Shown here in pieces: positions 1-56,663 of a stretch of DNA of 64,000 bases; positions within the stretch are counted from its first letter, which is position 1; each line of letters opens with the position of its first letter. The DNA lies in assembly GCA_044892525.1 (NCBI GenBank), contig CM097885.1, positions 222,828,001 through 222,892,000 of the forward strand. Reading direction: 5' to 3'. The translations under genes were made by a program, and so were the position numbers. The DNA is from Schmidtea polychroa. Taxonomy: Eukaryota. A model generated the notes under the pieces. That model saw only the letters and a list, made by a program, of their open reading frames with translations, ran no database searches and was not told the DNA's origin.

Positions 1-133
1 CTTTCAGACTCGACAATTCATCATTCATTAATATTTTAATTTTTAAATTTAAATAATCTGCATAATCTTTTAAATCAAAATTTGTTTTTGCATTTATTCC
101 AAATGTTTTTAAAAAATCTAATATTGAAGCCAT
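1..133 (-). CDS. Polinton adenain-like cysteine protease, N-terminus (partial, runs off the window)
   Basis: Manual translation from the minus-strand ATG at 133 gives MASILDFLKTFGINAKTNFDLKDYADYLNLKIKILMNDELSSLK. This resembles the TNxDLxxY...L...MxDEL N-terminal motif of Polinton proteases. The catalytic His/Cys are outside the window. Confidence 0.55.
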   Translation of the reverse strand, partial: MASILDFLKTFGINAKTNFDLKDYADYLNLKIKILMNDELSSLK

Positions 134-994: not shown

Positions 995-1016
995 TTTAAT
1001 GGTATTAAAAATGGTA

Positions 1017-1535: not shown

Positions 1536-1550
1536 TTTATAATAAATAAA

Positions 1551-2335: not shown

Positions 2336-2346
2336 GGCTTGTCGAC

Positions 2347-3732
2347 TTAAAAATCTGTTTTCTGTAACTCATTATTATAAAATCTACCTAATATTTTTTC
2401 ATTATTTAAATCAATGATGCTATATGTTATTGGAGTTGTATAATGTATTTTATTTATAATAAAAATTTCATTTGTCCATTTTGCTGTGAATCCTTTTTCA
2501 AATTTATTTTTATATTTAAATATTCTTACTCGGTCACCACTTTTAAACTTTGGTTTTTCAATATTTACCACTTTAATGGTTTCAGGATTTGTGAGTTCCA
2601 AAGGATTCAAGGAAGCATTTAAAGGTGTTGATTTTATAGAACTATGTACATCATTATTATATTCATTTACAATCTTTTGTAACAATTCATTATTCCATTT
2701 TTGTTTTCCAATAGCAGTAAAATATTTCCACATTTTATTTTTTAATGTTCTATTTAATCTTTCAACCACAACTGCTTTTCCTTCGTTTTCTGTTGAATAT
2801 AATTTAATATCATTTTCATTTAAAAACTTTGTAAAAACTTTGTTATAAAATTCTGTTCCTTTATCACACCATAAATATTTTGGAATTCTTTGATATTCTT
2901 CAAATATATTTTCAAATGCTTCTGTAATAGAATATCCTGTTTTATTTTCTAAACCTCTTGCAAAAGCAAATCTTGTATATAAATCTATTACTGTTAAAAT
3001 TATTTTATATTTTTCAGGGTCTGATGATTTGGTTGGCATAAAGACTAAATCTGCAGACCATGTTTGATCTTTTTCATGTACTTGAACTTTTAAATATTTT
3101 TTATTTTTTCTAAATTCATGGTGTAATTCGTTGGCATATTTTATTTCTGATTCTGTTGGGGTTTGTAAACTAGTCTTGGCTGTACTCTCGAGGGATCTTT
3201 CAATCTCTGCTTGTTCGATAATCTTTTTATTAGCAACATCTTTTGCTTTCCTAGGAAGTCTTGCACCCATAAGAAGTCCTAAGCCTATGAAAATCTTACC
3301 TTTCATTGCTAATTTAACTAGAGCTCTTTGAATCTTTTCTTGGGTTGATGGATTTTGGATACTATTTAAATCATGTATTAAATTCACATCTGCAACATGT
3401 CTATCTCTAAGATCTTCTGAATTGTAAGCAATATCATGTTTTAAAGCTGCTTGATCAATTCTATTTATTGGTTCTTCTCCTTGTTTGGGATTATTATTTT
3501 CATCTAATCTAATATCTAATCTTGTTCCTGGCCCAGTATAATTGTGTTTAAATAAATGTCTTTCACCTGGATATTTTTCTGTAGTAAAAGGTTTTAATAT
3601 TGAAGATGTTGTTTTTGAAGATTGTAGATCACCTCCTATATGTTTTTTAGTTTTTAAATGACTTGCTTTATGGTGTTTTGTAACTTGACAATTACAAGTT
3701 TCGCATCTCCAATAGGGTTTATTTATAGACAT
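2347..3732 (-). CDS. C2H2 zinc finger + parvovirus-type phospholipase A2 + c-integrase fusion (461 aa)
   Basis: CETCNCQVTKHHKASHLKTKKH (C2H2). YTGPG...DQAALKHDIAY...RHVAD (PLA2 Ca loop and HD catalytic motif). WSADLVFM / LWCDKGTEF / VVERLNRTLK (DDE integrase), followed by the FKSGDRVRI C-terminal domain. One uninterrupted frame. Confidence 0.9.
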   Translation of the reverse strand: MSINKPYWRCETCNCQVTKHHKASHLKTKKHIGGDLQSSKTTSSILKPFTTEKYPGERHLFKHNYTGPGTRLDIRLDENNNPKQGEEPINRIDQAALKHDIAYNSEDLRDRHVADVNLIHDLNSIQNPSTQEKIQRALVKLAMKGKIFIGLGLLMGARLPRKAKDVANKKIIEQAEIERSLESTAKTSLQTPTESEIKYANELHHEFRKNKKYLKVQVHEKDQTWSADLVFMPTKSSDPEKYKIILTVIDLYTRFAFARGLENKTGYSITEAFENIFEEYQRIPKYLWCDKGTEFYNKVFTKFLNENDIKLYSTENEGKAVVVERLNRTLKNKMWKYFTAIGKQKWNNELLQKIVNEYNNDVHSSIKSTPLNASLNPLELTNPETIKVVNIEKPKFKSGDRVRIFKYKNKFEKGFTAKWTNEIFIINKIHYTTPITYSIIDLNNEKILGRFYNNELQKTDF

Positions 3733-3761
3733 TTTAAAATGTTAAAATATCAGGGATTATA

Positions 3762-5054
3762 TCAAGAATCTCCCCTAACATTTTCAATAATTGAAATCTT
3801 TCCACCATATAATTTCATTTCTATTTTCTTTTCTTCTAATATTAATGTATATACTTTAGCTTTAAAATTAGAATCCTTTGTTACATGAAGTGTAACATCA
3901 ACATTATTTATAGCTAGGCGATCATCTTGGTCTGAAACATTTATACAAAATATAGAATATAAATTTTTGAAATCTTCTAAACTTAATTGCGGTTCAACTT
4001 TGAAATCATAACATGTTTCAATATAATTTAGATATGGGAATATGTTTTCATTATTTTCAATATTAAATTCCATTCTATTTATTGGATAATAAGAACTATT
4101 TAATTGAATTTGTATTGTTTGTAAATTATCATCTCCAATCTTTTGAATAAATAGATTGTTATTTTTTTGGAAAGATGAATCTGTTTCTTTGAATCCAATC
4201 AAGATATATCTTGGTCGGTATGCTAAATTTGCTACCTTTATAGAATATGTTGAACCCTCTGTCATACTAAATTCACTACAGATTCTATTTAAATAATTTA
4301 CATTTATAGACTTGTTGGAATTTAATCTTTCAAGGAGTTTAATCTCAGAATGTGGGTTTAATGTCCATTCAGGTATATGTAATTCAAGTGTTGATAATTT
4401 TAATTTAGCTTTTGTATCTACAGCTCCATAGAACAATCTTTTATCACCTTCTACTCTATTACAGATGAATTCTATAAAAACATTATGAAGTATACGATTA
4501 TAGTTTTGAAGGAATCCAAACAAGTGTTTTAATTGAAAATAACCTTCAAATTTTTTAGATTTATAAAGTTCAGCTCTTTTATGGTAACCATGGTTTACAT
4601 CTAAACCATCTTTATCTAAATCCCCTTTATTAGTGTCAGGAATCCAACCTGTTAATTCACCATATTCATTTTTATAATCACAACCAGTCAAAATAAAATT
4701 TAACATTGTAGAATATACTCCTGGATGTAAAACAGTTTCAATTTCTGATGATCCTAGTTTTAATCTCATGTTGGAGAATAAATTTGGAAAGAAATTATTT
4801 TCTAGGGTTATATCTTTGTTTGCTTCAATTTCTAATTCAATTTTATAATATAATTTGGCATTACAAATATCTATTGGGTTTGATGTTTGAAGAGATTGAA
4901 AAACTATATCACCCGTACGATTTAAGTTTGCAATAGATCCTGAAGTTGGCGAGATTTTTAAAATATCATTTTTTTTAATTTCATGAGTAAATTCTTTATT
5001 ATAATCAAGATTTAATTTATTTTTTTCTTGAATTTTGAGATTTATATTATTCAT
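3762..5054 (-). CDS. Polinton major capsid protein (double jelly-roll, hexon-like; 430 aa)
   Basis: Motifs LKHLFGFLQNY, RPRYILIGF, IQLNSSYYP and YSIFCINVS...Q are typical of Polinton MCPs. Size and position next to the integrase and ATPase fit. The frame is intact. Confidence 0.85.
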   Translation of the reverse strand: MNNINLKIQEKNKLNLDYNKEFTHEIKKNDILKISPTSGSIANLNRTGDIVFQSLQTSNPIDICNAKLYYKIELEIEANKDITLENNFFPNLFSNMRLKLGSSEIETVLHPGVYSTMLNFILTGCDYKNEYGELTGWIPDTNKGDLDKDGLDVNHGYHKRAELYKSKKFEGYFQLKHLFGFLQNYNRILHNVFIEFICNRVEGDKRLFYGAVDTKAKLKLSTLELHIPEWTLNPHSEIKLLERLNSNKSINVNYLNRICSEFSMTEGSTYSIKVANLAYRPRYILIGFKETDSSFQKNNNLFIQKIGDDNLQTIQIQLNSSYYPINRMEFNIENNENIFPYLNYIETCYDFKVEPQLSLEDFKNLYSIFCINVSDQDDRLAINNVDVTLHVTKDSNFKAKVYTLILEEKKIEMKLYGGKISIIENVRGDS

Positions 5055-5101
5055 TTTTATATATTAAAATTAATATATCCAATAAAAAAAATATTTATAA
5101 A

Positions 5102-7236: not shown

Positions 7237-8604
7237 TATGGGCGGAAATCTTAGTGATAAAGCAAAAAATGATCTATCAAATGGAAAAGCTGTTCTGTCG
7301 ATAAATAAAATAGAAAGATGGTATACCGGAATGGAAACAGACCTTCCGAGATTGAAAGAGTGGATTACCGAACTAACTCAAATCCAACAGCCAAAGAAAA
7401 TTGAAAATTATCTTAAATATGTGTGTTAAAGTTTACAATAAATACCAATACGATGAAATTGCAAAACTAATAAAGACATTGGGAAAAGCACTGAGATCCA
7501 CAGAGAGTTTGACCGACATATTCGTAGACACTATAGACGGAAATGGCAGAAAATTTCAATTTTCGATTAAACCTAATGGGCAAATAAAGGACTTGAGGGA
7601 GCTTATTATGTCAAAATATAAAGCAAATGAAGTGCAAATAAATTTCAAAAAACGGTCAATGGGTCAATTGGCGGATGGAGAATATTTGGTCGATTGTGGG
7701 TTGATATAAAAATGAGGTAAAGATATTAAATGTAATTAATCATTCAAATTCAGATTTTAAAGGATGAGATGGAAAATTACAGGATTTACGGGATAGCCTG
7801 TATATTGGAGATGAAGACGAAATTAGTAAATGTCTGGAACGGATGATAAGTTCGGAGATGGATCAAAAAGCGAAAGAACAATTATTCGAAAGTATTTTAC
7901 CGTATATTCATAAAACAACGAACTATCAGGCGAAATTGAAAGAAATAATACGAAAAATGGGCCGCGAGCACCAGGAGTCAGATGATATACCAAGATCATT
8001 AGTAATAGCCTTAAATATGAATGGAAAGGTGGAGTATTTACAAGAACACTGGAGCATGAAGGTGTCGAAAGTACGACGGAAAGCGGTGGAAATGTTGGGC
8101 AATGATGGAATTATTATACTAACTTTCAAGGGAGTTGAGTTAGACGACGATGAATATTTAATCAATTGTGGATACAGTCCGAATTATACAAATAATATCG
8201 AAGCCAAGAAACAGGTGAGTGAGGTATCCGAGAGTATAATAACCCGCTGGCCGAGAATTACAAAAGATACAAAGGATGCCGACATAGAAATTAAAACTGA
8301 ATTGGCTGAGGAACCTAACGACTACGAGTTAGAAAAGTATGACCCAAGAGATGAAGGTATAAATGACGAGCAAAACGAAAATAAGATTGAGGAGGTAGAC
8401 GAAAATGATGCAGTAAATCAGGAAACTAACAATATAACTGACGAGCTACCAGTGAATATAATTCAAATAAACAAAAACAGAGTTGAAGCTGTGGTGGATT
8501 CTGAATCAAGTCATATAATTATATCAGAAGAAATACTGTCGGTGGAAGAGAAAAAACGAATCCAAAACGAATCCATATTAATCAGATGGTCAATTGCTCT
8601 CTAA
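7193..8604 (+). pseudogene. Gag-Pol linker with two ubiquitin-like domains and a degenerate aspartic protease start
   Basis: Ubl1 spans about 7515-7740 (DIFVDTIDGNGRKFQFSIKPNGQIKDLRELI...QLADGEYLVDCGL/KNEVKILNV). Ubl2 spans about 7996-8200 (SLVIALNMNGKV...KVSKVRRK...LTFKGVELDDDEYLINCG). The protease motif is VEAVVDSESSHIIIS (DSE for DSG, 8497). Frameshifts and stops are present. Confidence 0.7.
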
Positions 8605-8660
8605 GAGTATGATTTCGAAATTAAATATAGAGCAGGAAAACGAATGCAAATGCCGATGCA

Positions 8661-10160
8661 ATGTCAAGAATTCTCAATGGGCTTAGTGGAAAGGATGCTG
8701 GCACAGAAACGATGGAAGGCACGATATTTGCAGCAATCAAAGCCGTTAATAATGTGACTGAATTACAAAACGAACAGAAAAAGGATAATCGACTTAAACA
8801 TTTCTTTGAACAAGCAATCACAGTCAGAAAAGAGAAAGATTTAAAGCAGATAATGAGTGAAAATCATAAATATATAATTCACGAAGGAATATTAAAATGC
8901 GTGAAAAACGACGAGATATTGATTATGATACCTGAAAAAGAGAGAGATTCACTATTGATGCAATATCATGATGGAGCCCTAGGAGGACATTTGTCCGCTA
9001 GAAAAACCTTATCAAGAGTGAAAATTAAATACTATTGGCCAATGATGGAAAAAGACGTAAAAGATTGGTGCAAAAATTGCAAGATATGTATAACTCGAAG
9101 AAATACAGGCAATAAAATTAAAGTACCTTTAAAACCAATGTCTGTTCCAACCGCACCAATGGAGATGACTGCAATGGACATTGTTGGACCGTTACCTGAA
9201 ACAATAAAAGGAAATAAATGCATTGTAGTATTTTGTGATTATTTGACAAGATGGCCTGAAGCTTACGACATACCAAATCAAAAGGCCGATACAATAGCAA
9301 AAATATTTGTAGAGAACATTATTTTCCGATATGGTACCCCAAAAACGTTATTAACTGATCAAGGTAAAAATTTCCAAAGCGAATTATTTAAATCAATCAC
9401 CGAGTTATTCGGAATTTGGAAGTTGAATACTTCGCCCTACCATCCACAAACCGATGGTTTAGTCGAGAGATTTAATGGCACATTGATAAATATGATTTCG
9501 TCGTATGTAAATAGCAAACAGAGAGATTGGGACGACTACATAAAGCCTTGTTTGTTTGCATATAGAAATGCTGTCAACCCAAGTATGGGAGAGACACCTT
9601 TTTATTTAATGTACTTAAGACGAAATAACATGCCGATAGATCTAAACTTCCAATCACCCGTTACTCAATATATGGAAGTGCCCGAGTATAACGCGATAAT
9701 GCAAGAGAGAGTGCAGTCTGTATGGACAAAAGCCGGATTAACAATAAAACACAATCAAGAGAAGTACAAAGAAGCCTACGATAAGAAAACACGACCTCAT
9801 GGAATTAAAATTGGAGATTTAGTGTATCTTAACAGACCAGAACCACTCAAAGGAATGTCTCCAAAGTTACAGAGACCATTTAAAGGGCCATATAAAGTGT
9901 GTGATACAACCGAAACAAATTTGAAATTATTACCGTTTAGGAGTAAAAAGCCAAATTCTATAATAGTTCATGCCAATCGTTGTAAATTGGTTCCGGAAAA
10001 TTACGAAAAAAGATATCCATTACGATCGAAACGGAATAAAGAGAAGGCGGATACAAAAATTCAACAAAAATTTACCAAAAACCCAGTTCCAATCAGTTAT
10101 CTTAACAGAGTGCTATTCACAACAGTTGTGCCAATGGTGATGACAAGTGTAAAAGGGTGA
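8661..10160 (+). CDS. Ty3/gypsy integrase (with upstream RNase H C-terminal remnant)
   Basis: RWSIAL*EYDFEIKYRAGKTNANADAMSR (RNase H end, from about 8580). HHCC zinc domain (HDGALGGH...CKNC), D-D-E core (MDIVGP, TDQG, VERFNGTL) and GPY motif. Uninterrupted for 499 aa. Confidence 0.92.
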   Translation: MSRILNGLSGKDAGTETMEGTIFAAIKAVNNVTELQNEQKKDNRLKHFFEQAITVRKEKDLKQIMSENHKYIIHEGILKCVKNDEILIMIPEKERDSLLMQYHDGALGGHLSARKTLSRVKIKYYWPMMEKDVKDWCKNCKICITRRNTGNKIKVPLKPMSVPTAPMEMTAMDIVGPLPETIKGNKCIVVFCDYLTRWPEAYDIPNQKADTIAKIFVENIIFRYGTPKTLLTDQGKNFQSELFKSITELFGIWKLNTSPYHPQTDGLVERFNGTLINMISSYVNSKQRDWDDYIKPCLFAYRNAVNPSMGETPFYLMYLRRNNMPIDLNFQSPVTQYMEVPEYNAIMQERVQSVWTKAGLTIKHNQEKYKEAYDKKTRPHGIKIGDLVYLNRPEPLKGMSPKLQRPFKGPYKVCDTTETNLKLLPFRSKKPNSIIVHANRCKLVPENYEKRYPLRSKRNKEKADTKIQQKFTKNPVPISYLNRVLFTTVVPMVMTSVKG

Positions 10161-13304: not shown

Positions 13305-15924
13305 CACCTAATTCTGTTTTTACGCGAATTTGATTTAACGCGATTCAAAAAAATTCATTGTTTAACAAGAAAAAACATGTATGTACATGTTTTATGGTAA
13401 AAAAAGAAAATTGTGCGAAATGTTATGTTTGTTTAAAGTGAGCAATACAAAATTAAAAAAAAGAATAAAATATTTTTATAGTTCGTTAATTCTTTATAGT
13501 TTACTGCTAATTTGTAGTTTAGGTTTAAAACAATTTCTATTTTAATGTATGTACAATAATCAAAATTCTGAGGTGAGAAAACTAAAATATTTACATTCAC
13601 ATGTACCTTTATTTTTCTAAAACATTTGAATTTTTTAAGTTATTCGATAATAGGTGTTATAATAGGTGTTTTAGTATAAAATACCAATCCAAATTTGGTA
13701 TCAATTGCGTTTGAAGATTTTACCAAGAGATTTATACAATTCCTGAATTCAATTAACGGTAATTTATAATTTGAAGTGCATTTATTTATTACCTGCAAAT
13801 AAATTTTTTTATAGGGACCTCATTACAATTAACAATGTCAGCTAAAAAACAAACGAATAGAAAAGCTATTTCTTTGGAAGTTAAAATCAAAATTTTGGAT
13901 AGACTAGCCACTGGAGAAGGTGCCACTTCTGTAGGAAAATATTTTAATTTAAAAGAATCTACCATAAGAACAATAAAAAAAATGAAGAAGCTATCAGAAA
14001 ATCTGTGATTGCTGGAACAAATATGAGTGCTCATACATCATCATACACAAGAGACATAGTAAAAGAGAAAATGGAGAAGGCTCTTGTAATATGGATGGAG
14101 GATTCCTCACAAAAACGAATACCAGTTGACGGAAATGGCATAAAGCAGATGGCATTACGGATCTATAAGCAGATGAAAGAAATGGAACCACAAACATCAG
14201 GCCAGAGAGATAAAAAATTTGAATTTTCTGCAAGTACAGGTTGGATGACAGGTTATCTGCAAAGGCACACGCTGCATAATATAAAAATTAGGGGTGAAAT
14301 TGCATCTGCAGATGAGGTAGCAGCCAAAGAATTTCCCCAAAAATTGGCTAAAATAATTGAAGAAGGTGGCTACACTGCTGATCAGGTATGGAATGCAGAT
14401 GAAACCGGCCTTTTCTGGAAACGAATGCCGAGCAGAACATACGTAGCTAAATCCCAAAAAATTGCAAGTGGGTTTAAAGTAGCCAAGGATCGTGTGACCT
14501 TTTTATTTTGTTCTAACGTTTCAGGAGATCGAATGCTAAAACCTTTACTTGTAAATCGAGCTCTAAAACCACGGTCAATGAAAGGTGTAAATTTTAGTAC
14601 ATTGCCAGTTCACTGGAAAGCTAATAAAAAAGCTTGGGTGACAACTGAGACATTTAAGGAGTGGTTCCTCAAAAGTTTTGTCCCAGAAGTTCGCCGCTAT
14701 ATGAGCGATAAAGGTTTTGAATTCAAGGTTCTGTTGATTATAGACAACGCACCAGGTCATCCCCATATGGAGCATCCAAATGTCGAATTTTGTATTTTCC
14801 ACCCAATACTACTTCGTTGATACAACCACTGGATCAAGGAATTATAGCAACCTTTAAAACCTATTATGTTAAGTAAACATTCCGGTATATTTTAGATCAA
14901 TTAATGAATGATGACAATTTAAAAGTTATGGACGCGTGGAAGAAATTTTCTATTAATGACTGCATCAAACATGCTGGATTAGCGCTATCCGAACTAAAAC
15001 CATCAACTTTAAACGCATGTTGGAAGTCCCTTTGGCCGGAATGCGTCAAAAATAAAAATCCGATACCTTCTAATGCAGTCGAGTTTAGCAATATCATAGC
15101 CTTAGCTCATGAAGTAGGCGGAGAAGGTTTTGATTATCTATCGTCTGCAGATATAGAAGAACTAATAGTGGATACGGTACTTAGCAGTGATGAAATCATT
15201 GCTTTTGCGCTTGAGACACCCGATGTGCAAGAAATTAGCAAAGATAACGACGTAGAGGTTCCTACCCTCACCGCAGATCTAATTAAAGAAGGACTTCAAC
15301 TAGCAGCTAAATTAAGCGATCATTTTGGCAAGCATGATCCTATTGAGGAAAGAGCTCGGAAATTTCAACGTGACGTGAAATTATTAATGGGAAATTATCG
15401 CAAATTACATAACAGCATTATCAAACCCAGACCACAACAATTGATTACTGAATTTTTGACTAAAACCACTAAAACATCAACACCACTTCAACATGAAAAT
15501 GAAGTGGAAAATATTTCTAGTGATGACAGTGATTGTGGCGTTCAAGTCTCACGTAAACGAATACGTATATCATCAGGAAGTGACAGCAATTAAAAAATAT
15601 GTTTAATGATATATTTTGCCACTTTTTGATTTACTAAAATGAATTTTTTGTGATTTTTTTGTTAAATAATGAATTTTTTTTGTTAAATTAGTATTTTCTT
15701 TCGTTTGTCGTTATTTTATTCATAAATATATATTTAAATAAATAAAAAGTGTATAAAACACGTAAAAACCATGAATTTGTATACTTTAATCACATTATTT
15801 TAGTTGATTTTGGAAATGAAGAACCAATCCTCTACTTTTATATGGACACCATATCTTTTTTTACGCGATTTTTTTACGCGTATTTTCGGGGAACGTATCT
15901 ATCGCGTAAAAACAGAATTAGGTG
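13305..15924 (+). mobile_element. Full-length pogo/Tigger DNA transposon (2620 bp)
   Basis: Perfect 22-bp TIRs CACCTAATTCTGTTTTTACGCG (13305-13326 and 15903-15924). TA TSD on both sides. Confidence 0.95.
13835..15593 (+). pseudogene. Tigger transposase (CENP-B HTH + DDE_1), disrupted
   Basis: MSAKKQTNRKAISLEVKIKIL HTH. DDD motifs WNADETG, IIDNAPGH and IQPLDQG. Frameshifts at the A8 run (about 13975-13982) and near 14800, and an in-frame stop at 14874-14876. Confidence 0.92.
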
Positions 15925-16132: not shown

Positions 16133-18615
16133 ATGAATTCAAACAAACAATTAATGAACTCTGAAATTTCCGAAGCTTTCAAAAGAAATTTGAAATACGA
16201 TCTAGTAAAAGATCATTCAACAGCAACTTCAAGGCATCATTATAACGCCCTCGCTCAAACGGTTTGGGAACAAATTTGTAGTCGATGGATCAAAACTGAG
16301 GAACTTTATAACAAAAACGATCCAAAAGTAAATTCAATTTTCATTAAAATATTAAATTAATATTATTATTTTAGCGAGTTTATTATTTATCTCTGGAATT
16401 TTACATGGGCAGAACATTGAGTAACACAATGATGAATATTGATTTACAAGAAGAAGTTAAACAAAATCTCTATGAAATGGGTCTCGAAATCGAAGAATTA
16501 GAAGAGATTGAAGATGATGCTGGACTTGGAAATGGAGGTCTTGGACGTCTAGCAGCATGCTTTCTAGATTCCATGGCGACTTTAGGAATTGCTGCTTGCG
16601 GATATGGAATCCGTTATGACTATGGAATATTTCAACAGGTTTTCCATGATGGATGGCAAATTGAAAAGCCTGATGATTGGTTGAAGCATGGTAATGTTTG
16701 GGAAAAAATCCGATCCCAATATAGTCACGAAATCAAATTCTATGGACACTGCCAAAATACCGAAGATGGAAATAATCGTTGGGTTGACACAGAATCTGTA
16801 CTGGCAATACCATATGATACACCGATACCTGGATATAAAAATGACATCTGTAATACTTTACGCTTGTGGTCAAGCAAACCAGTTAATAATTTCGATTTTC
16901 AATCATTTAATTCTGGAAATTACTTAAATGCAGTCCATGAAAGAAATAACGCAGAAAACATTTCACGTGTTTTGTATCCAAATGATAACTGTGAAGGTGG
17001 AAAAATACTGAGATTGAAACAAGAATATTTTGTTGTCGCAGCAAGTTTGCAAGACATTATTCGACAATATAGAGAATCAGGACCTCGTTCAGGTTTTGAT
17101 GAATTTCCTAATAAAGTTGCAATACAACTCAATGATACTCATCCTAGTATTGCTATTCCCGAATTGATGCGTATACTAGTTGATTTGGAAGGTTTGGATT
17201 GGGATAAAGCCTGGGATATTTGTACTCGAACATTTGCCTATACAAATCATACAATTTTACCAGAAGCTCTTGAAAGATGGTCAGTTTCATTACTAGAGTT
17301 TCTTTTACCTAGACATTTACAAATTATCTATCTCATCAACCATTTCTTTATGTTATCGGTTAAAGAAAGATATCCCCATGATAATGACCGCTTACGACGA
17401 ATGTCAATAATTGAAGAGGGAGATGAAAAGAAAGTGAATATGGCCCATCTCTGTATTGTTGGATCACACGCAGTCAATGGCGTTGCTGCGATACATTCCA
17501 AGATTATTAAAGGCGATACATTTAGAGACTTTTCTGATTTTTGGCCTGAACGGTTCCAAAACAAAACTAATGGAATAACTCCACGTCGGTGGTTATTGTT
17601 ATGCAATCCAGATCTTTCCAATTACATCAGTCAGAATATTGGAAGATCATGGATAAACAACTTGAATGATTTGTCAGATTTGAAACGGTTCTGCGATGAT
17701 GCAAATGTGCTTGAGTCAATCATGCAAATCAAATATGAAAACAAAGTAAAATTTGCAAATTACATTGAGAAAAACATGAACATCAAAATTAATCCCAATA
17801 CAATGTTCGACTTTCAAGTGAAACGGATCCATGAATATAAACGTCAATTGTTAAATTGTTTATATGTGATTGTGCTATACAACCGATTGAAAAAGAATCC
17901 TCATTTGGAAATCACTCCAAGAACTGTCATGTTTGGAGGAAAAGCTGCTCCTGGGTATCACATGGCCAAATTGATAATCAAACTTATCAATCAAGTCGCA
18001 TCTACCATTAATCAAGATCCAATCATCAGTGAAAAGCTAAAACTTGTATTTCTTGAAAACTATCGAGTATCAATGGCAGAGAAGATCTTTCCTGCTGCAG
18101 ATCTTAGTCAACAAATATCCACAGCAGGTACGGAGGCATCTGGAACTGGGAACATGAAATTTATGTTAAATGGAGCTTTGACAATTGGTACAATGGATGG
18201 AGCTAATGTCGAAATGTGTGAAGAGATGGGTAAAGAAAATATGTTTATATTTGGAATGTTAGTAGACGAAGTCAACTCACTCAAACCAAGATATAATTCC
18301 ATGGAATTTATTGGGAGAAACGAAGAACTCAATTTATGTTTAAACCAAATTCGTGATGGCCGTTTTTCACCTAATCAACCACATTTATTTCACGATATCT
18401 ACAATTCTTTAGTTTACCATGATAGATTTATGTTGTGCGCTGACTTTGAAGATTATGTCAAAGTACAGGATGAAGTTGGAAAGATGTATCAAAATAAAAG
18501 ACAATGGGCTAAAATGGCTTTATTAAACATTGCATCCAGTGGAAAGTTTTCATCTGATAGAACAATTTCTGAATATGCACGAGACATTTGGAATAGTAAA
18601 CAGAACATTTATTAA
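16133..18615 (+). CDS. PYG: Glycogen phosphorylase, 2 exons (16133-16327, 16375-18615), about 811 aa
   Basis: A 47-bp GT-AG intron joins NDPK to [13 protein letters not shown]. Motifs [27 protein letters not shown]-lysine [10 protein letters not shown] and C-terminal [17 protein letters not shown] are present. Confidence 0.97.
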
Positions 18616-24240: not shown

Positions 24241-25959
24241 ATATATATATATATATATACTTTAGACCAACAAAATATCATTTTACCTTTTTCAAGTGTT
24301 ATAAAAATTAATTTTAATATTCAACATCCATACAATATATAATATGAAAAATTTATTTTTAATTATCTTAAATAATAAATAGATTTTGTTTTAATGACAA
24401 TATTTAAAATTTTAGATTCTTTAAAGACCCATAGCAAAAAAATTTTTAAAAATTAAGATCAAGGATTTGTTTGAATTTTTATACCACCATTTATTTCAGT
24501 TCTTTATAGGTGAATGCTGACAATTTATTTATACTAAAATCTATTAGATTTGCTTACTTTTGAAAGGGTTTTTGAAATATTTTATTAATATTCTCAATAC
24601 ATTCGAAAATTAGTCAAAACCGAATATATTAGAAATTATAAATCTAGTTGAATTCTTGTTCAATGATATAAATGTATTTAGAGAACCAGTTGCATTGAAT
24701 TATGTAATTTACATTAAAAATTGACCTTTAACTTTTGATGCAATATAAAATTTTAAGTTCTTTGAAAAATCCCGAAATTAAGGAATTAAAAATTCTGACA
24801 GATTTCCACAAGGGAGCACCAAATTTTCCAAATTTTTAATATATATATATATAATATACGAAGATTCAATTAATCTAGATGTGGAGAATATAAATGATTT
24901 TTCTTATTTAAATGAGTGGGAGAAATATATTAATGGAGGATTTATTATGTTAATATAATATCTGTGGAACAAAAGATCATTTAAAAATTAATATTTACAT
25001 TTATGGTTAGTTAAAATAGATAATTAAAACAAATTATTTACATAGATAATTAAAACAAATAATTAAAATAGATATATAAAATAATTACAGATTCTGATAT
25101 AATTATAATAATTGGTTCTAAAATTTGTTTGAGAAGTTCATTCATTTTAAAAAAATTTTTTGACGTTTTAATAATTGTAAAATAAAATTGCCGATAGTCA
25201 TCTTTGTTATTTATGTAAATAAAATGGAAAAGTTTGTGTTCTTTATTTAGCTTATTATTAATTCCCCTGTTCATTTAGAATTGCATGGAAATTGTTTTAT
25301 TATAGGTTCTTTTAAATCAGTGATTCCCTACCTTTTTTTTCTTGAAATATTTTAGAGTATTTAAAAATTTCGCAGCACAATTTACTTAAAATTAAACATC
25401 TTACAAGAAAGCCATTTCAAAAATTGCTAAAATGACTTTCTAGAAAAATGAAATTTATTAGATTGGTGAGTCAATTTAATGAGACCAATTGATGTACACT
25501 ATAACCACCACTATAGAAAATGTATCTCAGATAGATCAAAAGATAAATTAGCATTAAACTTCTTTTTTCTATTATGCTAAGTTTATAACTCTTCGGTTGA
25601 AACAAAATTTAAGTCTGACTCTCCGTACCCTATGTCAAGTAATAAAAACATAAAAATGTGTTAAAATTTTATTTAAGAAGACATAGATATAAGTTTTACT
25701 ATGGAAAAATTCCATTTTCTTGAATCTGATTGGCAGTTAATATGAATTTACAACACTTTCTTCATCCAAAGTAGCATTTTGGCCTTGTATTTGGCAAGAA
25801 TGATTAATCCAAATAAATATAACTTTCCATATAAATCTCTCTGATTTCCGTTATCATCATGATATTATCTTTTTCTATTGTTACAAGTTTTAATTTCCTA
25901 ACTAAAATATGGTGATTCTTACATCGCCACAAAACATATTTTTAGAGTGCTGTAATAAT

Positions 25960-26760
25960 GATTCGATGATTAGTGCCCACACTAAAAATGCCCACACGAA
26001 AATTGCCCACAGAAAATTGCCCACAGGTAGTATTGCGCACACGATTAATGCTCACACAGAATAATGCCCACACAGAATAATGCCCACAAGGAAAAATGCC
26101 CACATAGACAAATGCCCACAAGGAAAAATGCCCACAAGGAAAAATGCCCACACGAAAAATTATTTTAAATATAAAAATTAAATTAAAATAAATAGAGAAA
26201 AAAATCAAAAATTATATTCTATCTAGAATCATTATCTTATTATTCTGTAATTTTAAAAACCATTAATTGGGTAGATTTTTTATCCAGTAATATTTATTTA
26301 ATAATAATCGGTAATTAATAAACAATAAAATGTTTACTTCNNNNNNNNNNNNNNNNNNNNNNNNNNNNNNNNNNNNNNNNNNNNNNNNNNNNNNNNNNNN
26401 NNNNNNNNNNNNNNNNNNNNNNNNNNNNNNNNNNNNNNNNNNNNNNNNNNNNNNNNNNNNNNNNNNNNNNNNNNNNNNNNNNNNNNNNNNNNNNNNCCGA
26501 CAAGATATTTTGTCCCCCTATGGGTATTAGTCGCACGGGTACTGGTCATGCTTATTATTATTTTCTTATTATTTTATAATTGAGAGGGTGGCTTTAAGAT
26601 GATATACCTCAAATAAATTAGTATAATATATCACTAATAAAAATCGCTTTAATTTAATTTTTATATCTAAAATAATTTTTCGTGTGGGCAGTTTTCCTTG
26701 TGGGCAATTTTCTGTGGGCAATTTTCGTGTGGGCATTTTTCGTGTGGGCAATAATCCGAT
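25960..26760. mobile_element. Foldback/MITE-like unit with inverted arrays of a ~15-bp TGCCCAC repeat
   Basis: The AAAATGCCCACA-type array at about 25975-26160 faces the reverse-complement GTGGGCA array at about 26680-26750. An N gap lies between them. Confidence 0.7.
26341..26496. other. Assembly gap (N)
   Basis: Run of N. Confidence 1.
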
Positions 26761-28470
26761 CACGGTAATAATAATGATTGAAAATTGGTTTAGTTGGAGT
26801 AATAATAAAATATTTCCAATAAATAAAGAGAAAATAATAAATTAATAAAATCTATATGAACTTAAAAATCCATTAAATTTGTTAAATATTAGTTATTTTA
26901 ATTAGAATGCTAACAATTGTAAGGCCGTAAAATTATTATTTTGACAATTAAAAGATTAAGTAAAAAATAAACCAAATGTTGTACTTTTGTTTAAATTAAA
27001 AATATTTTGTTTAAACTTTTAATTAAGAACTTTTTTCAATTTTCAACATTGATTTCTTTTCAATAAACATTGTATGCCTGTCAATCAATTTATATATTAT
27101 AAAATGTCCCTCGAAAATCATTTGTACAATATATTTAGACAGGTAAGAAAAATAATTTATATAAATTTTAAATTGATTATTAAAACTAATTATAAAAATT
27201 GGGTACACTGAGAATTGTAATAATAGCCTCTAGTGGTAAACAAAATTTATCATAGAAAACAAAAATCTAAAATTTTACTAGTACAATAATTCAAATTATT
27301 GTTTACGGGAGGGTCTTTCTCATATACAAGGAACGTAAAGATTTGTTACCGTTTGACAATTTTAATGGAAATTCATTTATAGTAACAACTGTTAATTAAA
27401 AGTTAATTAATTGAATTAGAAATGTAAGAATCACCATATTTTGGTTAGGAAATTAAAACTTGTAACAATAGAAAAAGATAATATCATGATGATAACGGAA
27501 ATCAGAGAGATATATATGGAAAGTTATATTTATTTGGATTAATCATTCTTGCCAAAAGCAAGGCCAAAATGCTACTTTGGATGAAGAAAGTGTTGTAAAT
27601 TCATATTAACTGCCAATCAGATTCAAGAAAATAATAAAATAAATAAAATTTTAACACATTTTTATGTTTTTATTACTTGACATAGGGCACGGAGAGTCAG
27701 ACTTAAATTTTGTTTCAACCGAAGAGTTATAAACTTAGCATAATAGAAAAAAAGAAATTTAATGCTAATTTATCTTTTGATCCATTTTCATACTATAATA
27801 TTTGCAATTTAACGGTTAAGCTATTCATTTAAATTAGCAACAAAAGTACTAGCTAAATTATTTAATAATTATTTATATATATTATTACCAAACATAAAAA
27901 TAAAATACTAAAAAAAAGTAATTAAAAAAGTTTAAAAATAATGAAAAAAATATTTTATTCTTTTGATCTCCTTTGATCCTTTTTTTTTATTTTCACTTTC
28001 ACAAAAGATAAACAATTTATGTTAAATTTTCTTTTATATTAAATCTTTGATTTTTTGTCAGAATACAAATAAATGAAATATTATTAAAATTTTAAAAAAA
28101 AATTACGAAGTAATAATGATCCTAAATTATAAAAATAAATATTATAATTAAAACAAATAAAACCGAACTTTTACTCTTGATTTTTTGTGTAATTAAATTT
28201 TTAACATAAATAATAAATGGGCTGTTTATTTTGAAAGTGTATTTGTTTATTTTTTCGAAAAAGGAGTAAAATCTGTGTAAGATAACAACAATATATGATA
28301 ATTTTATTTTTAAACAAGCCATTCGCTATATCTTTCAAAATTTAACCAATTTATAAATAACTAATTTCCCAAAATTATTTGTCTTTTACAATTATTTGTA
28401 TTGAAAATAAATGGACCCTGAGTAGGTAGGCGTGATCCAAGCAGCTACATTAGTTACCACACAATAATAA

Positions 28471-50625: not shown

Positions 50626-52940
50626 CTTCCCCCAGGTAATTTATTTATTTATTATGTTATTTTTCATTTAGGTATCCTCAACAATATAGCCAAAAAATGA
50701 AATATTAGACTAGACAAATTTTTGACAGGCATATCTGTTCTCTGGAAAAATACCTCGAATTTCAAATCAAACAATAAATCAACTTCTTAAAATAGGTCTT
50801 TCAAATCAAAAATCTCTCGACCTTAATTTGAAAAGTATAACACCGAGACGTCCATTTCTCTGGCAAAACATATTTATTCAACACTAAGAGCGAAATAACA
50901 TAATGTCATTATTGAAGACCACTTTACAAAATAATTTTTCCATTACAAAATAAAATTCATTCAATTATAAACGATTTCAGTCCAACTTGAAATCAAAGAC
51001 CTTTGATTTTGTAACTGTAGTAATCCCTTACCCGGCAACATATTCATGTTACTTAAAATCGATTAAAGTCCCTTTATAAAACTGATCCGTTGTTTCCACA
51101 GCTGACAAACATTTCAAACTTTATAAAATTCTTGAAAGCAGCCTTGAAAGCAGAATCTATTTTGTCACAGAAATGATACCAGAAAATATTATGGACATCA
51201 GGGACAGTTTATGAAACTGAATTCCAGTTTCTAGAAAATAAGTTTACGAATATACAAAACTATTTCCTGAAAGCCCTTTTATCAAGATACATTTTTATTT
51301 CCATTTAAATAAATAATCTAGGATTCAGTGATAAGCCAAAGGAAGGGTTGAATGATTAAATCAACTCACTCTTCCATTGATACATATTTTTACAAATAAA
51401 AGTTGCTTTATCTTATATATTTTTTGCATTTTGCACCGCATTTGAACTGTTTGTTAAATTGTCTAAACTATCACCCATCATGCACAGGCAACAGCTCAAT
51501 AAGACGTGGAATTCTTTTTAATGTCGCTTTCACAGCACCCACAGTTTATTGGATGTAGACAATATATATATATATACAGTCTAAAGTTTAATTATTATAA
51601 TATTTGTTTACTTGATACTTAACCCTTCGAGTCCCGGGTTTTTAAAATAAAATATTTTCTATGTTGTCAATCAATTAGTATTAAAGAAAGTATCTGTGAA
51701 ATTATTTTTCATAAAAATTTGATATTTTTAGTAAAAATATAAAACTCAGAAATAAGGCAGAGTGTGATATTTAAAAAAAATCATTCAAGCATAGTAGAAC
51801 ATCACATTTTATGGACATATATGATGTTTGAGAATGTTTATTATGTTTTGAACATAAAACGCATCTTCTTTTCAAAGGTTTAATATCATTGTTTTTTCAG
51901 GATTGGGTTCAATGCTGTTACTCAAAAGGCGGATGAGTTCAAGACAGTCTCTCAGAAGTTTAGGGACTCCAAGATTCATACTTTTCAAAAATAAACTTTA
52001 CAAACTGCACCATATTTCAAGTAAGAATGATAAGGGACTAATAGTATCTTAATTTTTATTGCAATTGAATGAGAGTACTCTGCATGATAATTAATCTACT
52101 ACTTGCTTATGTACGATTTGTGAAGATTGAAAAAATTATCGAAATAATGCTATTTGTAAAATTATTTATAACTAACACGACTGGTACATCAGTATTTGAA
52201 ACCCTTGAAAACTTTTTTGTCAAAAAAATATTACCTGCACTAATGTGATTGCTTGTGCTACCGATTGAGCACCGCCTATGGTTGGTCAGCATCATGGTTT
52301 TGTATCAAGATTGAAAAATGTCCCACCAAATGCTTTAAAAATCTACTGCATCATTCACTGTCAACATTTAGTCACAGAACATCTTAATGGAATACTTCAC
52401 AAATCTATGAGTATTGTTATAAATGTTATCAATATGTTGGGGTTACACCTCGGTTGACTACTCTACATTATTGGCTAGCCTAAGGGTTGATTGTCCATCT
52501 TGAATAGAAAGCGCTTTCACCTGGTCAACTCGGAGCGGCACCCCACATAACTTTCCTCCAACATAGTGCCCGTGAATTGCTTCACGTTGGTACTGCACTA
52601 TGCAGGCGAGACACCAGCAAGCAGGTGAGCTTCTACCTTAAACTACTCCTTGCTGAGGCCTCGACTTCCCAATCGCGACTGCCGATAGAAGGGCTTACGT
52701 CCATTTCCATACATAACCACTTATCAGGATTCGCTGAATGCAAATTGGGAATTTCTCACTAGATCTTGCAGGTTCTCTACTCAACCCACTTAATTAAAGT
52801 CTGATTATTCATGAACGAAAACATATAAGACGACAAAATTTATTAATTTCAACGTTATGACACAAGGATTCAGCTGTACATTTTACTAATGTTTGTCGAA
52901 AGAAGAGAAAACGTCATAATCAACATAGATCAGATCCTTG

Positions 52941-53693
52941 TTATTCATCCTGACCGCCACTGGGGTTTTCTTGTTTCTCCCATTCAGTGTCGGCGAATAA
53001 CTCGTCTAGATTAAAGAACTCGGAAGCGTTCTCTTCCCACGTTACGCCAGCGGCTGAAATGATTCGTGCTGGGGGTCCTGTTGTTAGGTCGATGGACACG
53101 CGAGAGTTGCCACCGTTGGTTGAGTCCTCTATTGATGGGATGTTTGGTTTTGTAGTAGCGCGCTCGCGCTGTCTTTTCTTGCGCTCTGCACGAGAGAGTT
53201 GTTTGCGCTTGGGTTTGCTTGAAGATGCAACTTGCAGAAGTGTAACTGATACGGATGGACTAGCAGTGGGTATCTTACTGGTACCCGTGATGACAACATC
53301 TGGTCGCTTGGGTGACAGTTCGGTTTCGACGCAGTCTCGACAGGGTCTCTTGAGAGGCGGAGATAGATTTGAAGTGGTGTTATGATGAGGCGGAAAGAGG
53401 TTGTCGGCCTCTTTGATCGGGATCTGAACGATCTTCCGCGTGGTGGCTGCCTGAAGGTAGACTTTATGTAGCGCCTCCGACTGCTCTTTGATAAGACTTC
53501 TTTGGGCACGGCTCTCAGATATTAGCGCGTCCCGGCAATGCTCGCTACGATGGAGCTTCTTTTGGGTCTCCTTCATCTGAGCGGGAGTGAACCAAATGCC
53601 CTCCAGCTCATCTATCTTCTTTTTGTAGCGCCCTTTATTTTTGTCCGCGCAGGAGAAGCATGGGCGTAAAGCGGATTTCGCAGCTGGTAACAT
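52941..53693 (-). CDS. Unknown 250-aa protein (CxxC, coiled coil, basic NLS-like segment, acidic-aromatic C-terminus)
   Basis: Intact GC-richer ORF. A polypyrimidine-CAG acceptor (AG at 53704-53703) lies 9 nt before the ATG. AATAAA lies at 52844-52839 downstream. Confidence 0.7.
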   Translation of the reverse strand: MLPAAKSALRPCFSCADKNKGRYKKKIDELEGIWFTPAQMKETQKKLHRSEHCRDALISESRAQRSLIKEQSEALHKVYLQAATTRKIVQIPIKEADNLFPPHHNTTSNLSPPLKRPCRDCVETELSPKRPDVVITGTSKIPTASPSVSVTLLQVASSSKPKRKQLSRAERKKRQRERATTKPNIPSIEDSTNGGNSRVSIDLTTGPPARIISAAGVTWEENASEFFNLDELFADTEWEKQENPSGGQDE

Positions 53694-55932
53694 GTTAGGT
53701 GACTGTAAAAGAAACTAAAATAACTAATCTTTAAGAAATCGTTGGTTGAGTATGGGATTTGTTCACCATCGCACATCCGGCGACAGGGCGATTAAGATAA
53801 ACGAGAAAAGAAAACCATTTCCAGAACGATTTAGTCACCATTACTAAGCTAATTATTTATCAAGACAATACCAATTCTGGTACCCATACTACTGCATTGA
53901 CGGATGCAAACAAAATGTTAACTTCAAAATTGAGATGATTTATGGATTACTAAATTAATCTATAAATGTCGGTTTATAAGACATACTTAATTATTAAATA
54001 GCACATTTGAATATTATTTAAAAATACATTTAATTATTATTTAAGATATTTTCCATTATTATTTAAAATATTCTTATTTATGAACCCGAATAATTTTACT
54101 TATTATTTTAAAAGTTGCTATCTAATTATCCGCTATATCACTTAACGGGTACCATATTAGGTTATAGATTCGATGATTTATGCACGTAAAGATTTATATG
54201 CTAGATTGTAGGACGGCAACGGGGATCTCTATCCCTAGTAGATCTACTAATCTAAAATTCGTATTTTTAGAAATTATTCAGAGCATTTTATTTTCATCTC
54301 ACCAACGGCATGTCAGATACTAGATGATGATAGAACTACTGTGAGTCAACAACTGGGTATTACCCATATCTGCTACTATCTACACGATGACTGATGGTCG
54401 CATGCTTAACTCGCAAATGTTGTCGTATGGTAGAATTCCTTATTGTGAGTGACTACTCATGAATCGTTCAATCTACTATGCCGGTGCACACGTGTCAATT
54501 GTTACCTCCCATCGGCATTTCAAATTATCGATGCATGATATGATGGAATTCACACCGCATTTGTCACCTGGTAGCAATCCTTACAATGAGCGATTATCTC
54601 TCAACATTGTGCTTTCTCGTGTAAATTCTAAATCTGATGTTACTACTCATCGTCATGCTGGTGTGCTTAATCAATGGGAATTTATCTGTGTTTACAGATC
54701 ATATGGACTAATTCTTAAACGTCAATTTGCCTGACCAGTTTGTCTACTTTCGATGGCTGGAATTATTTACTATACTTTGCAATTTGCTCAATTCTGGATA
54801 TTTCGCTTAATGGGGATTTCTACAAATTAATTCACTACTCTATTTGGATGTTATTTCGGCAATGGATATTCCGATTTGATGCGGTGGCGGTTGTAGAACG
54901 GTAATATTAGTCTATTAATGAGGGTGAATTAAATATAATCGTTATCCTGGATTTATGATTTTGCTTGAATTTTTATGAAAATTATTTACGTATCAGAATC
55001 TTTATATGCCTTAAACTAACTGGGAAGAGTCTAGAACTTGTATCATTATAGAATGAACGAACATAAAGGTAGAATGTAGTAAGATATTGGAGTCAAATTT
55101 CAACGGATTACGACGGTACTATTGGAGAGTTAGTCTCAGGGTCGCATGATCTCTCACGATAGGAATTAAAGACGTAAGGTCATTGTAGATGTGGCGTTCA
55201 CCTCAATCACTGTAAATTTCTGCATTCATTCTAGATTCGTGTTACCAATATAAACTACCCTTTTCTCATTATTTTTTCAAAGTTTGAGTCAACCTTCAGC
55301 GATTGGACCCGTGAAGAAGCCTTCACATTTCGGCCCAATCTAGCTGCGTGATTGAAGAACCCCAGATCCGCCGGCTGAGCTCCCGAAGGCACCTCACACC
55401 ATGATCTGAAGTTCCTCAACTCCACGTTACTCCACATTTTAACATCATAAAAAGATACTCCATAAAAATAATCATAAAAATAGTTCAATTGCTCAATCAT
55501 ATCGAATAAATACTTTTAGATCTTTAAATCATTTAATTTATCAAATTTATTAATCGGGATCAAGTGAAAAGAAAATCAAGTGTAACTTTTAAAATTTTAA
55601 TTATTCAATAAATATACATAGTTATTGTTAACTTTAAAATTAAACAAAAACAAATGAAATACAATCCCTTACTGTCGAGTTAGGCTGAATCGAAATATAA
55701 GGATCGTCTTCTCCAAGTGGTTAAATAGTTTCGAATCTTGTAGTCGGTTTCTATTGATAGTTGATTTGATTTGTTTTAGTCGTTGCTGTCACTGAGTACT
55801 TATGAGGTTTTTGAATGGTTTCTCTGATTTATTGAAGGTTTTCTGGTCCTAGAGTCAGTCCTGTAATGTTTTCAAATTAACACTCTGTCACTTATGCTAA
55901 AATTTCTTTACCTGTAATGTTTTCAAATTAAC

Positions 55933-55992
55933 ACTGATTTTTATGATTTTGGCGTCGGTTTATATACCAATTTTTCATTTACGCGGACCAAT
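55933..55992 (-). promoter_or_regulatory. Pol II core promoter: TATA (55966-55959) + Inr TCAGT (+1 about 55935) + CCAAT box
   Basis: TATATAAA begins 31 nt upstream of the A of ATCAGT. CCAAT lies at 55988-55992 on the opposite strand. Confidence 0.65.
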
Positions 55993-56417
55993 CAAAATTG
56001 AGTACCGCTTATTTTATTAAATTAATTTGTTTTTTCCTATTTCTTTGGATATTTTACTTATTTTCCTATTTTTATTATATCTTTTATTTATTTCCTAAAT
56101 TCCTTATTATTTATTGCATTTTCCGGTATCTTATTCATTATCTTATTACTTTATTTTTTTAATTTTTTAATTTTAATTTTTTGTTTTAATCTTTATATCC
56201 TATTTTATGGTTTATTTTATGTCTTGATTTATTTATTCCTAAAATTGGTGGTCTTATTTTATTTTATTCGCCTCTTGTCTATCTTATTTTTCGACGATTA
56301 TGTTTTCCGATTCAGCCCAGCAAATAAAATAAAGTCGCATCCTTTAAATCATAAATTATTTCACCAAATGTGTAAAGAAAATAATGAAGAATTTGAAAGA
56401 CTTATCTTACATACAAA

Positions 56418-56663
56418 CAGGCCACCGAGAGCCAGGCCGGGCATCCGATGCAATTCGTCAGTACGGGCTTCTTTGCAATTACAAACTGATATATTCAGTG
56501 CTCGAAGTGAGGCGGGATAGCCGGGATATTATCCCGGCATTGATTATGTAGGCGGAATTGCATCCCGGCACTTCATTTCATATAATCTATAGGTTTATCC
56601 CGGTACTTATTTCATTTTATAGGCACACAAATACTGCAATTAAGGTCACACATAGTACATCCA

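Follow-up and report, generated by a model that had tools for sequence, protein, structure and literature searches.

Positions 52435 to 56322 of a 64,000-nucleotide (nt) stretch of the Schmidtea polychroa genome (assembly GCA_044892525.1, contig CM097885.1, positions 222,828,001 to 222,892,000 of the forward strand; hereafter the window) raise the question of what kind of mobile element leaves behind a 3.9-kb insertion that looks like a long terminal repeat (LTR) and also like a self-contained spliced gene. A preliminary description offered two answers, a solo LTR of a giant gypsy element or a non-autonomous Ginger-like DNA element. Our comparison with other copies identified the insert as a solo LTR from a gypsy/env element of Burro type, ~30 kb long, and showed that the open reading frame (ORF) it carries is under purifying selection. 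The comparison also points to a spliced gene lying, probably, within a repeat (R) region of ~3.1 kb that starts at 55935.

We first consider whether the segment is one insertion at all. It begins with TG at 52435, ends with CA at 56321-56322 and is flanked on both sides by AATA, and the sense of the element is the window's minus strand. The following features delimit it:

52435-56322, minus strand: solo LTR of 3,888 bp from a giant gypsy/env element of Burro type; copies found as pairs enclose gag-pol and a primer-binding site (PBS)
52431-52434, no strand: left copy of the 4-bp target-site duplication (TSD) AATA; single AATA in 5/5 empty paralogues
56323-56326, no strand: right copy of the TSD AATA; single AATA in 5/5 empty paralogues
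52269-52434, plus strand: relic hAT transposase frame, left part, with a CIIH motif, from empty-site paralogues
56323-56418, plus strand: relic hAT transposase frame, right part, from empty-site paralogues

In all five hAT paralogues that we fetched, the empty site carries one AATA and a single frame continues across it; therefore the TSD is genuine, and a single insertion accounts for the segment. The termini and the 4-bp TSD of the preliminary description are thus confirmed, and a mosaic with a chance AATA match, which it had named as the case against itself, is ruled out. Its clean split of a hAT ORF holds in that the frame is interrupted at the single AATA, but the hAT is a relic rather than an intact ORF, itself broken by stops upstream and by a second insertion ~90 nt downstream. 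We presume the hAT family name from its motifs; a Pfam search of the short flanking piece gave no match.

What the insert belongs to was decided by its relatives. In the window's own genome (781 Mb), where 40 of 2,787 candidates were scored, we found full-length collinear copies at 93-96% identity with their own TSDs, and many matches occurred as pairs ~26 kb apart. Each of five fetched pairs belonged to an element 26-30 kb long, with 4-bp TSDs and LTRs measuring 3.85-4.16 kb, and the two LTRs were 99.9-100% identical in each of the five, which answers the earlier proposal to look for the unit in pairs around gag-pol. A 4,732-codon frame, present in four of the five, encodes gag, CCHC knuckles, a weak Bcl-2 match (E 0.057), a fusion glycoprotein, protease (PR), reverse transcriptase (RT), RNase H (RH), integrase (IN) and ankyrins, in which PR-RT-RH-IN is the Ty3/gypsy order. 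The PBS starts 7 nt past the 5' LTR and is complementary to a genomic tRNA-Pro(TGG), and a fixed sequence, not a clean purine run, precedes every 3' LTR. In the four elements with the long frame, a RING ORF follows the PBS, and four ORFs, one of them RING-MATH, follow pol. The former (L015:6767-7249, minus strand, 340 nt past the PBS) encodes 161 amino acids (aa) with a C-terminal C3HC4 and is preceded by its own splice acceptor, 2 nt upstream. The LTRs nearest to the window's subtype likewise sit on gag-pol bodies. Because its relatives pair around gag-pol with a tRNA-Pro PBS, the insert is a solo LTR, as the preliminary description had favored.

A non-autonomous Ginger-like element, or a chance mosaic of unrelated insertions, would share the TGT ends and the 4-bp TSD, but direct-repeat pairs enclosing gag-pol and a PBS, together with collinear full-length copies bearing their own TSDs, make either hardly credible. 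The inverted end is only short and imperfect, and the marks of Ginger DNA transposons (long terminal inverted repeats, an integrase-type transposase, no LTR pairing) were not found.

The planarian LTR retrotransposons called Burro, or GYPSM1, are giant and gypsy-like (Jurka 2007; Grohme et al. 2018; after PMC6431247). As far as the available portion of PMC6431247 describes it, Burro resembles our elements in its ~30-kb length with a 26-kb internal region and a single huge polyprotein, in gag with CCHC, a Bcl-2-like domain and an in-frame env-like fusion protein between gag and pol, and in PR-RT-RH-IN, ankyrins, accessory ORFs and tandem repeats in the leader. The same portion mentions no LTR gene, introns, length of R or RNA element. 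The giant gypsy family with multi-kb LTRs named in the preliminary description is the right one. However, the element is probably not Burro1/GYPSM1 itself, from which the published description rather than a consensus sequence sets it apart, because the frame there has 4,873 codons against 4,732 here, because MATH and BIR lie inside ORF1 there whereas MATH is found here in the separate downstream RING-MATH ORF, and because no BIR match was found in the element proteins. BURRO1 transcripts are under PIWI control according to the portion of PMC8532177 at hand, so that expression of the family is possible in a related setting, and the corresponding portions of PMC13238120 and PMC11410931 contain nothing on LTR structure.

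Several observations on the elements stand apart from this identification. One element (L021-L024) contains a 0.6-kb LTR piece within its body and a shortened polyprotein, and several tandem arrays share LTRs at a spacing of 11-27 kb. Genes for tRNA-Pro form arrays with a 475-bp period at 130.9 Mb and 133.2 Mb of contig C1 (L053-L055), and the tRNA-Pro 3'-end pattern has 1,577 matches with at most one mismatch. In one leader (L015:5548-6175), about eight 74-nt tandem repeats each contain GTC/GTAAG, possibly extra donors. Finally, the bodies of the elements at C1:9591500-9624499 (L105-L108) and C2:49096000-49131999 (L013-L016) are 94% identical (polyprotein 96-98%), while their LTR ORFs are only 63% identical and their introns do not align; LTR modules thus appear to have been swapped between lineages.

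The solo LTR contains one ORF:

52941-53693, minus strand: LTR ORF, 250 aa (53693-52944), with an Arg/Lys-rich helix at 53216-53160, a VSIDLT word like a SUMO-interacting motif (SIM) at 53099-53082 and an FFNLDELF tail at 53018-52995

The predicted protein comprises, in order, CxxC, two long predicted helices, a second CxxC, the Lys/Arg-rich helix, the SIM-like word and an acidic hydrophobic tail, where the motif names are those we take to fit. The copy in the window is decaying, because 27 nt are deleted in frame near codon 20 and the usual stop of the family is lost, so that the ORF runs 9 codons longer; its terminal repeat has one changed base. Of 56 LTR copies homologous in the ORF, 41 retain a frame of 225-260 aa and three more reach 266 aa. 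The ratio of nonsynonymous to synonymous substitution rates (dN/dS), which the preliminary description had suggested calculating, has a median of 0.11 and a maximum of 0.18 among 16 subtype representatives (72 of 120 pairs with measurable dS) and is 0.06 for the N-terminal 110 columns. These values show that the LTR ORF is under purifying selection. The earlier statement that every solo LTR would deposit an expressible gene was too strong: only 8 of 16 TSD-flanked solo LTRs, for which ends were found among 42 examined, keep the 225-260-aa ORF.

Database searches said little about this protein. No Pfam family, no match in a word-indexed protein search and no match in a phage search were obtained with it; the best hit in the ESM Atlas scored 0.83 with low recognition, and one viral contig matched weakly. 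The AlphaFold2 model is of low confidence (pLDDT 57, pTM 0.23), and comparing it with viral folds gave no match; the Arg-rich helix is predicted at residues 177-188 with modest pLDDT, and its basic motif is conserved. With a profile search, 12 proteins were matched at E up to 0.001; they are homologous pieces inside apparently chimeric gene models of another genome, and their best match in the window's genome is ~40-44%. Several of these homologues have NRRRRERR-type motifs, and one (P0003) has a sub-threshold match to Pfam REV (19.1 vs 22 bits). The gene models of that genome, which are predictions only, splice homologous ORFs into host genes. Distant families in the window's genome keep the ORF, the acceptor, the promoter and the exon-1a repeat described below, together with an intronic hairpin, and in the protein the CxxC pairs, the basic stretch and the acidic hydrophobic tail are kept.

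How would such an ORF be expressed? From promoter, splice and polyadenylation signals we inferred the following layout, read on the minus strand:

55936-56322, minus strand: inferred U3, 387 nt; first ~17 nt complementary to the end of exon 1b
55959-55993, minus strand: core promoter, a reversed CCAAT box (55993-55988) and a TATA box (55966-55959), from aligned LTRs
55912-55935, minus strand: putative exon 1a, 24 nt, from the presumed +1, the start of R; exact repeat, 26-31 nt past TATA
55861-55911, minus strand: predicted mini-intron of 51 nt, GTAAAG...CAG; exon 1a recurs exactly as its last 24 nt (55884-55861)
55673-55860, minus strand: putative exon 1b, ATG-free by the leader count; arm complementary to the LTR start at 55695-55679
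53703-55672, minus strand: predicted intron 2, 1,970 nt, from a GTAAGG donor (55/56) to a pyrimidine-CAG acceptor (YAG 56/56)
52839-52844, minus strand: AATAAA followed by a GT-rich tract, kept in 25/25 aligned LTRs; putative R/U5 border near 52820
52435-52820, minus strand: putative U5, ~385 nt; in full elements the tRNA-Pro PBS follows 7 nt on

In the window copy, GTAAGG stands at 55672, and a pyrimidine tract with a CAG ending at 53703 is followed 9 nt later by the ATG, as the preliminary description had read it. Among the same 56 copies, YAG lies 5-10 nt before the start codon in every one, with a pyrimidine tract in 47 against 74 of 5,330 background intron windows, and a GTAAG donor lies upstream of the hairpin in 55 against 44 of 260 background windows. 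Exon 1b and intron 2 are only ~10-65% identical between subtypes, while these splice signals and the AATAAA, which had also been noticed past the stop (52844-52839), persist. The spliced leader is free of ATG in 51 of 55 LTRs, where 2.46 ATGs would be expected in each. For gag, too, an acceptor lies upstream in 7 of 7 elements, at 550-690 nt from the gag ATG and with no ATG between in six of them; before the four 3' accessory ORFs, no acceptors were found.

In the promoter, the TATA box TATATAAA lies at 55966-55959, and the A of TCAGT lies at 55935, 31 nt past its start, so that the -31 position assigned before was correct. The CCAAT box claimed upstream is present but inverted, reading ATTGG on the sense strand at 55993-55988. 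The ATTGG box is kept in 24 and the TATA box in all of 25 aligned LTRs, and the same pair occurs in distant families. Of the proposed initiator, the position is kept, whereas the TCAGT word is kept only in the window's subtype. Similarly, the first exon was rightly called ATG-free up to 55672 (no ATG between 55937 and 55673), but it appears to contain a further 51-nt intron (CAG/GTAAAG, 55911).

This small intron is marked by a peculiar repeat. About 25 nt, running from 26-31 nt past TATA to AG/GTAA, is repeated exactly 44-52 nt further on, again ending in AG. Among the 58 LTRs, out of 87 given, in which a promoter and a donor were found, 54 have the exact repeat, with 20 different unit sequences including those of distant families, and GTAA follows the first copy in 53 of the 54. 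Comparable repeats elsewhere in the LTR occur in only 3 of 56 LTRs, and six copies are missing precisely one unit. We consider that the repeat was likely left by minus-strand transfer from an RNA whose 5' end had been spliced, which would fix the start at 55935 and the length of R at ~3.1 kb. The general scheme of strand transfer is given in the available part of PMC6894440; the specific model with a mini-intron is our own. Such a model predicts scars before the second copy and not before the first, and in line with this, 15 young LTRs have 8 distinct 12-mers before copy 2 against 2 before copy 1, an excess that is clear in one young group but not in the other, and both LTRs of each of five elements carry the same 12-mer variant. 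In two pairs of subtypes, U3 is common (94-100%) and divergence begins at the exon-1a repeat.

An ordinary tandem duplication across AG/GT, homogenized by slippage or conversion, would also give a repeat and would then be uninformative on strand transfer. Consistent with it, the repeat in some subtypes extends 3-6 nt into GTAA, as in a plain tandem duplication, and slippage could yield the copies in which one unit is missing. Other points likewise weigh against a transfer footprint: other mosaic breakpoints fall at the hairpin, and the junction hot spot is one of 4 top windows out of 340 in the E1-type group but is no top window in the E5-type group. On the other hand, duplication would have to produce 20 unit sequences, each identical within its LTR and placed between the same two landmarks even in distant families, although the rest of the LTR has hardly any repeats of this kind, and variation gathers before copy 2 rather than copy 1. 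We regard it as unlikely.

Another possibility is that R is short, with the gene and the hairpin inside a 3.4-kb U3 under an internal promoter, similar to sag of mouse mammary tumor virus (MMTV), which lies in U3 with its own promoter, and with genomic RNA started by a TATA-less promoter before the polyadenylation site. A short R is the usual LTR layout, and we know of no R region with a gene inside, such regions normally having tens to a few hundred bases. A 3.5-kb strong-stop DNA would also be unusual. However, each LTR has just two TATA-like words, the second of which is not common to the LTRs, and an exon-1a repeat of 20 sequence types, tied both to TATA+26..31 and to the splice junction, needs an RT that reaches the end of the RNA. 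A non-autonomous family, moreover, keeps the promoter with no gene behind it, and gag has its own acceptor and an ATG-free leader. A short R thus seems quite improbable to us, and the ~390-bp U3 and ~3-kb R with an intron-bearing gene anticipated in the preliminary description are strongly supported by the comparison.

Some observations nevertheless weigh against the spliced gene in a long R. The LTR copies are related, so that our counts overstate independence, and a search for LTRs lacking intron 2 with one tight gapped pattern, which covered three subtypes, gave 0 matches and hence no spliced, retro-copied form of that intron. Contigs of three runs guessed to be RNA and of one run of unknown kind covered a young relative sparsely with no predicted junction, and are uninformative. 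One contig, from run X5, ends in an A-run just outside the 3' LTR (L013:5413) in antisense, an antisense polyadenylation site or an artefact.

Intron 2 contains a conserved RNA structure:

55297-55426, minus strand: two-hairpin RNA element, candidate export or packaging signal, with an apical C(UUCG)G over a purine-rich internal loop (55395-55377)

This ~130-nt block lies ~250-300 nt past the second donor and is 86-99% identical between subtypes, with a folding z of -6.0. Over 37 distinct copies, 98% of the cells pair, against 38-49% when the structure was slid, and 9 of 46 pairs changed on both sides, a covariation seen in 0 of 500 shuffles. This result has to be weighed against the facts that the structure was derived from the same alignment, that 39 of its 40 rows were chosen by the apical 19-mer, and that, when the apex was left open in the search, 23 of the first 100 matches varied there by a hand count. 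The hairpin core has at least 672 copies in the window's genome, and ~60% of the first 100 have no near partner. Four of 20 distant-family loci match the model of the RNA element with a different apex, other distant families have a long hairpin at a similar position, and in a distant family the second hairpin is kept better than the other parts. Two other identities were rejected. A ribozyme had no support, since no covariance model of Rfam 15 matched anywhere in the LTR at E up to 10 and no hammerhead or hairpin core was seen by eye. A second PBS inside the intron was suggested by 13 of 14 bases that the hairpin shares with the PBS, but the shared bases form pairs of the stem and vary along with it.

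A non-autonomous family, known from two paired elements and one unpaired (L100-L101, L096-L099 and L061), bears on the role of this element. Its LTRs are 1.8-2.3 kb long, and it has the same PBS and pre-LTR sequence and keeps TATA, the donor and the RNA element, while no gag, pol or LTR ORF was found in it. The family is likely to be a parasite of the Burro-type element. Because a family without genes keeps the RNA element, the latter is likely needed in cis.

Separate from this element is a complementarity within the LTR. In 52 of 52 LTRs, the best pairing partner of the first bases of U3, among all windows, is the end of exon 1b, and the duplex has G-U pairs and subtype-specific extensions. 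Cyclization of Ty1 RNA by CYC5 and CYC3, as outlined in the consulted part of PMC4974528, similarly uses complementary sequences near both ends of the genomic RNA; in contrast to Ty1, one arm here lies at the very start of U3 and the other at the end of exon 1b, within R. That they serve cyclization is only our guess by analogy.

What, then, might the LTR protein do? The Rex, Rem and Rec systems of complex retroviruses serve RNA export. Rev with the Rev response element (RRE) of human immunodeficiency virus (HIV), Rex with its response element (RxRE) of human T-cell leukemia virus, MMTV Rem and Rec of human endogenous retrovirus K are the closest comparisons, with which the LTR would share a small basic protein from fully spliced RNA, a structured RNA found only in intron-retaining RNA, a purine-rich internal loop and a predicted Arg-rich helix. 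By analogy, it is possible, though we hold it only tentatively, that the LTR protein controls intron-retaining RNA through the intron-2 hairpin. The covarying element does lie inside predicted intron 2, which would confine it to intron-retaining RNA, and G-U-G/A-G of its internal loop resembles RRE IIB, for which the accessible text of PMC4488727 gives G47-A73, G48-G71 and a bulged U72. The systems differ, however, in that the LTR protein belongs to none of their sequence families (the sub-threshold REV match is in one distant homologue only), and in that here the gene and the RNA element lie wholly inside the LTR, so that they occur twice, and the host is a Ty3/gypsy element. Several features speak against a Rev-like step: the acidic tail resembles an activation domain, the REV match below cut-off falls on an Arg-rich stretch, the RRE-like loop is not kept in distant families, and inspection of the alignment by eye gave no clear pattern of a CRM1-type export signal.

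With the same architecture, the hairpin could instead be a packaging or dimerization signal read by Gag, and the LTR protein an activator like Tas or Tat or an unrelated host-interaction protein. This reading, which concerns function only, has in our view close to an even chance and is about as likely as the Rev-like one. Packaging elements downstream of a major donor are a known design according to the portion of PMC13736810 consulted, and a signal past the donor would limit packing to unspliced RNA. A non-autonomous element must keep its packaging signal, and the preservation of the second hairpin in a distant family fits this as well; the CxxC pairs, basic stretch and acidic hydrophobic tail kept in distant families would suit an activator. 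On the contrary, the Arg-rich helix, the Rev-like wording in distant homologues and the purine-rich loop fit RNA binding, and the element needs some means of exporting intron-retaining RNA. Genes in or overlapping a retroviral U3, namely MMTV sag, HIV nef and foamy virus bel/Tas, are likewise ORFs carried by an LTR that can remain in a solo LTR; theirs lie in U3 upstream of the start, whereas the gene here is predicted in R, behind two introns and before the polyadenylation signal.

Taken with the Rev-like reading, these observations would give the following life cycle. One promoter (TATA 55966) would serve all element RNAs, and the cap-proximal mini-intron of ~50 nt would be spliced out near the 5' end. 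Splicing from the donor at 55672 to the LTR acceptor would yield the 250-aa protein, with polyadenylation in the same LTR; when that site is read through, the donor would instead be joined to the acceptors before the RING ORF and gag-env-pol. Since the LTRs keep the 2-kb intron, the genomic RNA must keep it, too. Synthesis of minus-strand DNA, ~3.45 kb in all, would proceed as far as the spliced 5' end, and this DNA would then be transferred to the unspliced 3' R, aligned with the end of the mini-intron, which would be overwritten by exon 1a in each cycle; in this proposal the repeat is exact because of the overwriting. The small basic protein from the fully spliced RNA would bind the intron-2 hairpin via its Arg-rich helix, the bound intron-retaining RNA would leave the nucleus as with Rev, and the non-autonomous partner would borrow the protein in trans.

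Other features lie elsewhere in the window. Three ORFs on the minus strand at 242-5063, with 264, 464 and 433 aa, presumably are part of a Maverick/Polinton; by eye, the second resembles an integrase and the third a capsid protein. By eye, a gypsy integrase fragment lies at 7768-10160, Tigger/pogo-like transposase pieces at 13948-15593 and a glycogen-phosphorylase-like exon at 16375-18615, and a 2.2-kb inverted-repeat element occupies 25563-27752.

The family is known and a solo LTR is ordinary, whereas the anatomy of this LTR appears to be undescribed: in titles and the opening lines of abstracts, we found no Burro LTR gene, long intron-bearing R, RNA element or Rev-like gypsy protein, although the extended data of Grohme et al. 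2018 or Fig. 2A of PMC6431247 may draw the ORF. The broadest picture, which we consider rather unlikely as a whole, is of Burro as an analogue of complex retroviruses within Ty3/gypsy, with a Rev/RRE-like switch in a 3-kb R, a cap-proximal intron rebuilt at each reverse transcription and hundreds of solo LTRs leaving regulator genes and acceptors behind. If true, an R of 3 kb that contains two introns, an ORF under selection and a covarying RNA element would constitute a new LTR layout, in which a jumping gene regulates itself much as HIV and other complex retroviruses do, and the existence of a Rev-like pair outside Retroviridae would bear on the number of times that export by intron retention has evolved. 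The exon-1a repeat offers a reading of the start site, the splicing and the first strand transfer from genomic copies, and many expressible copies and cryptic exons may have their origin in solo LTRs.

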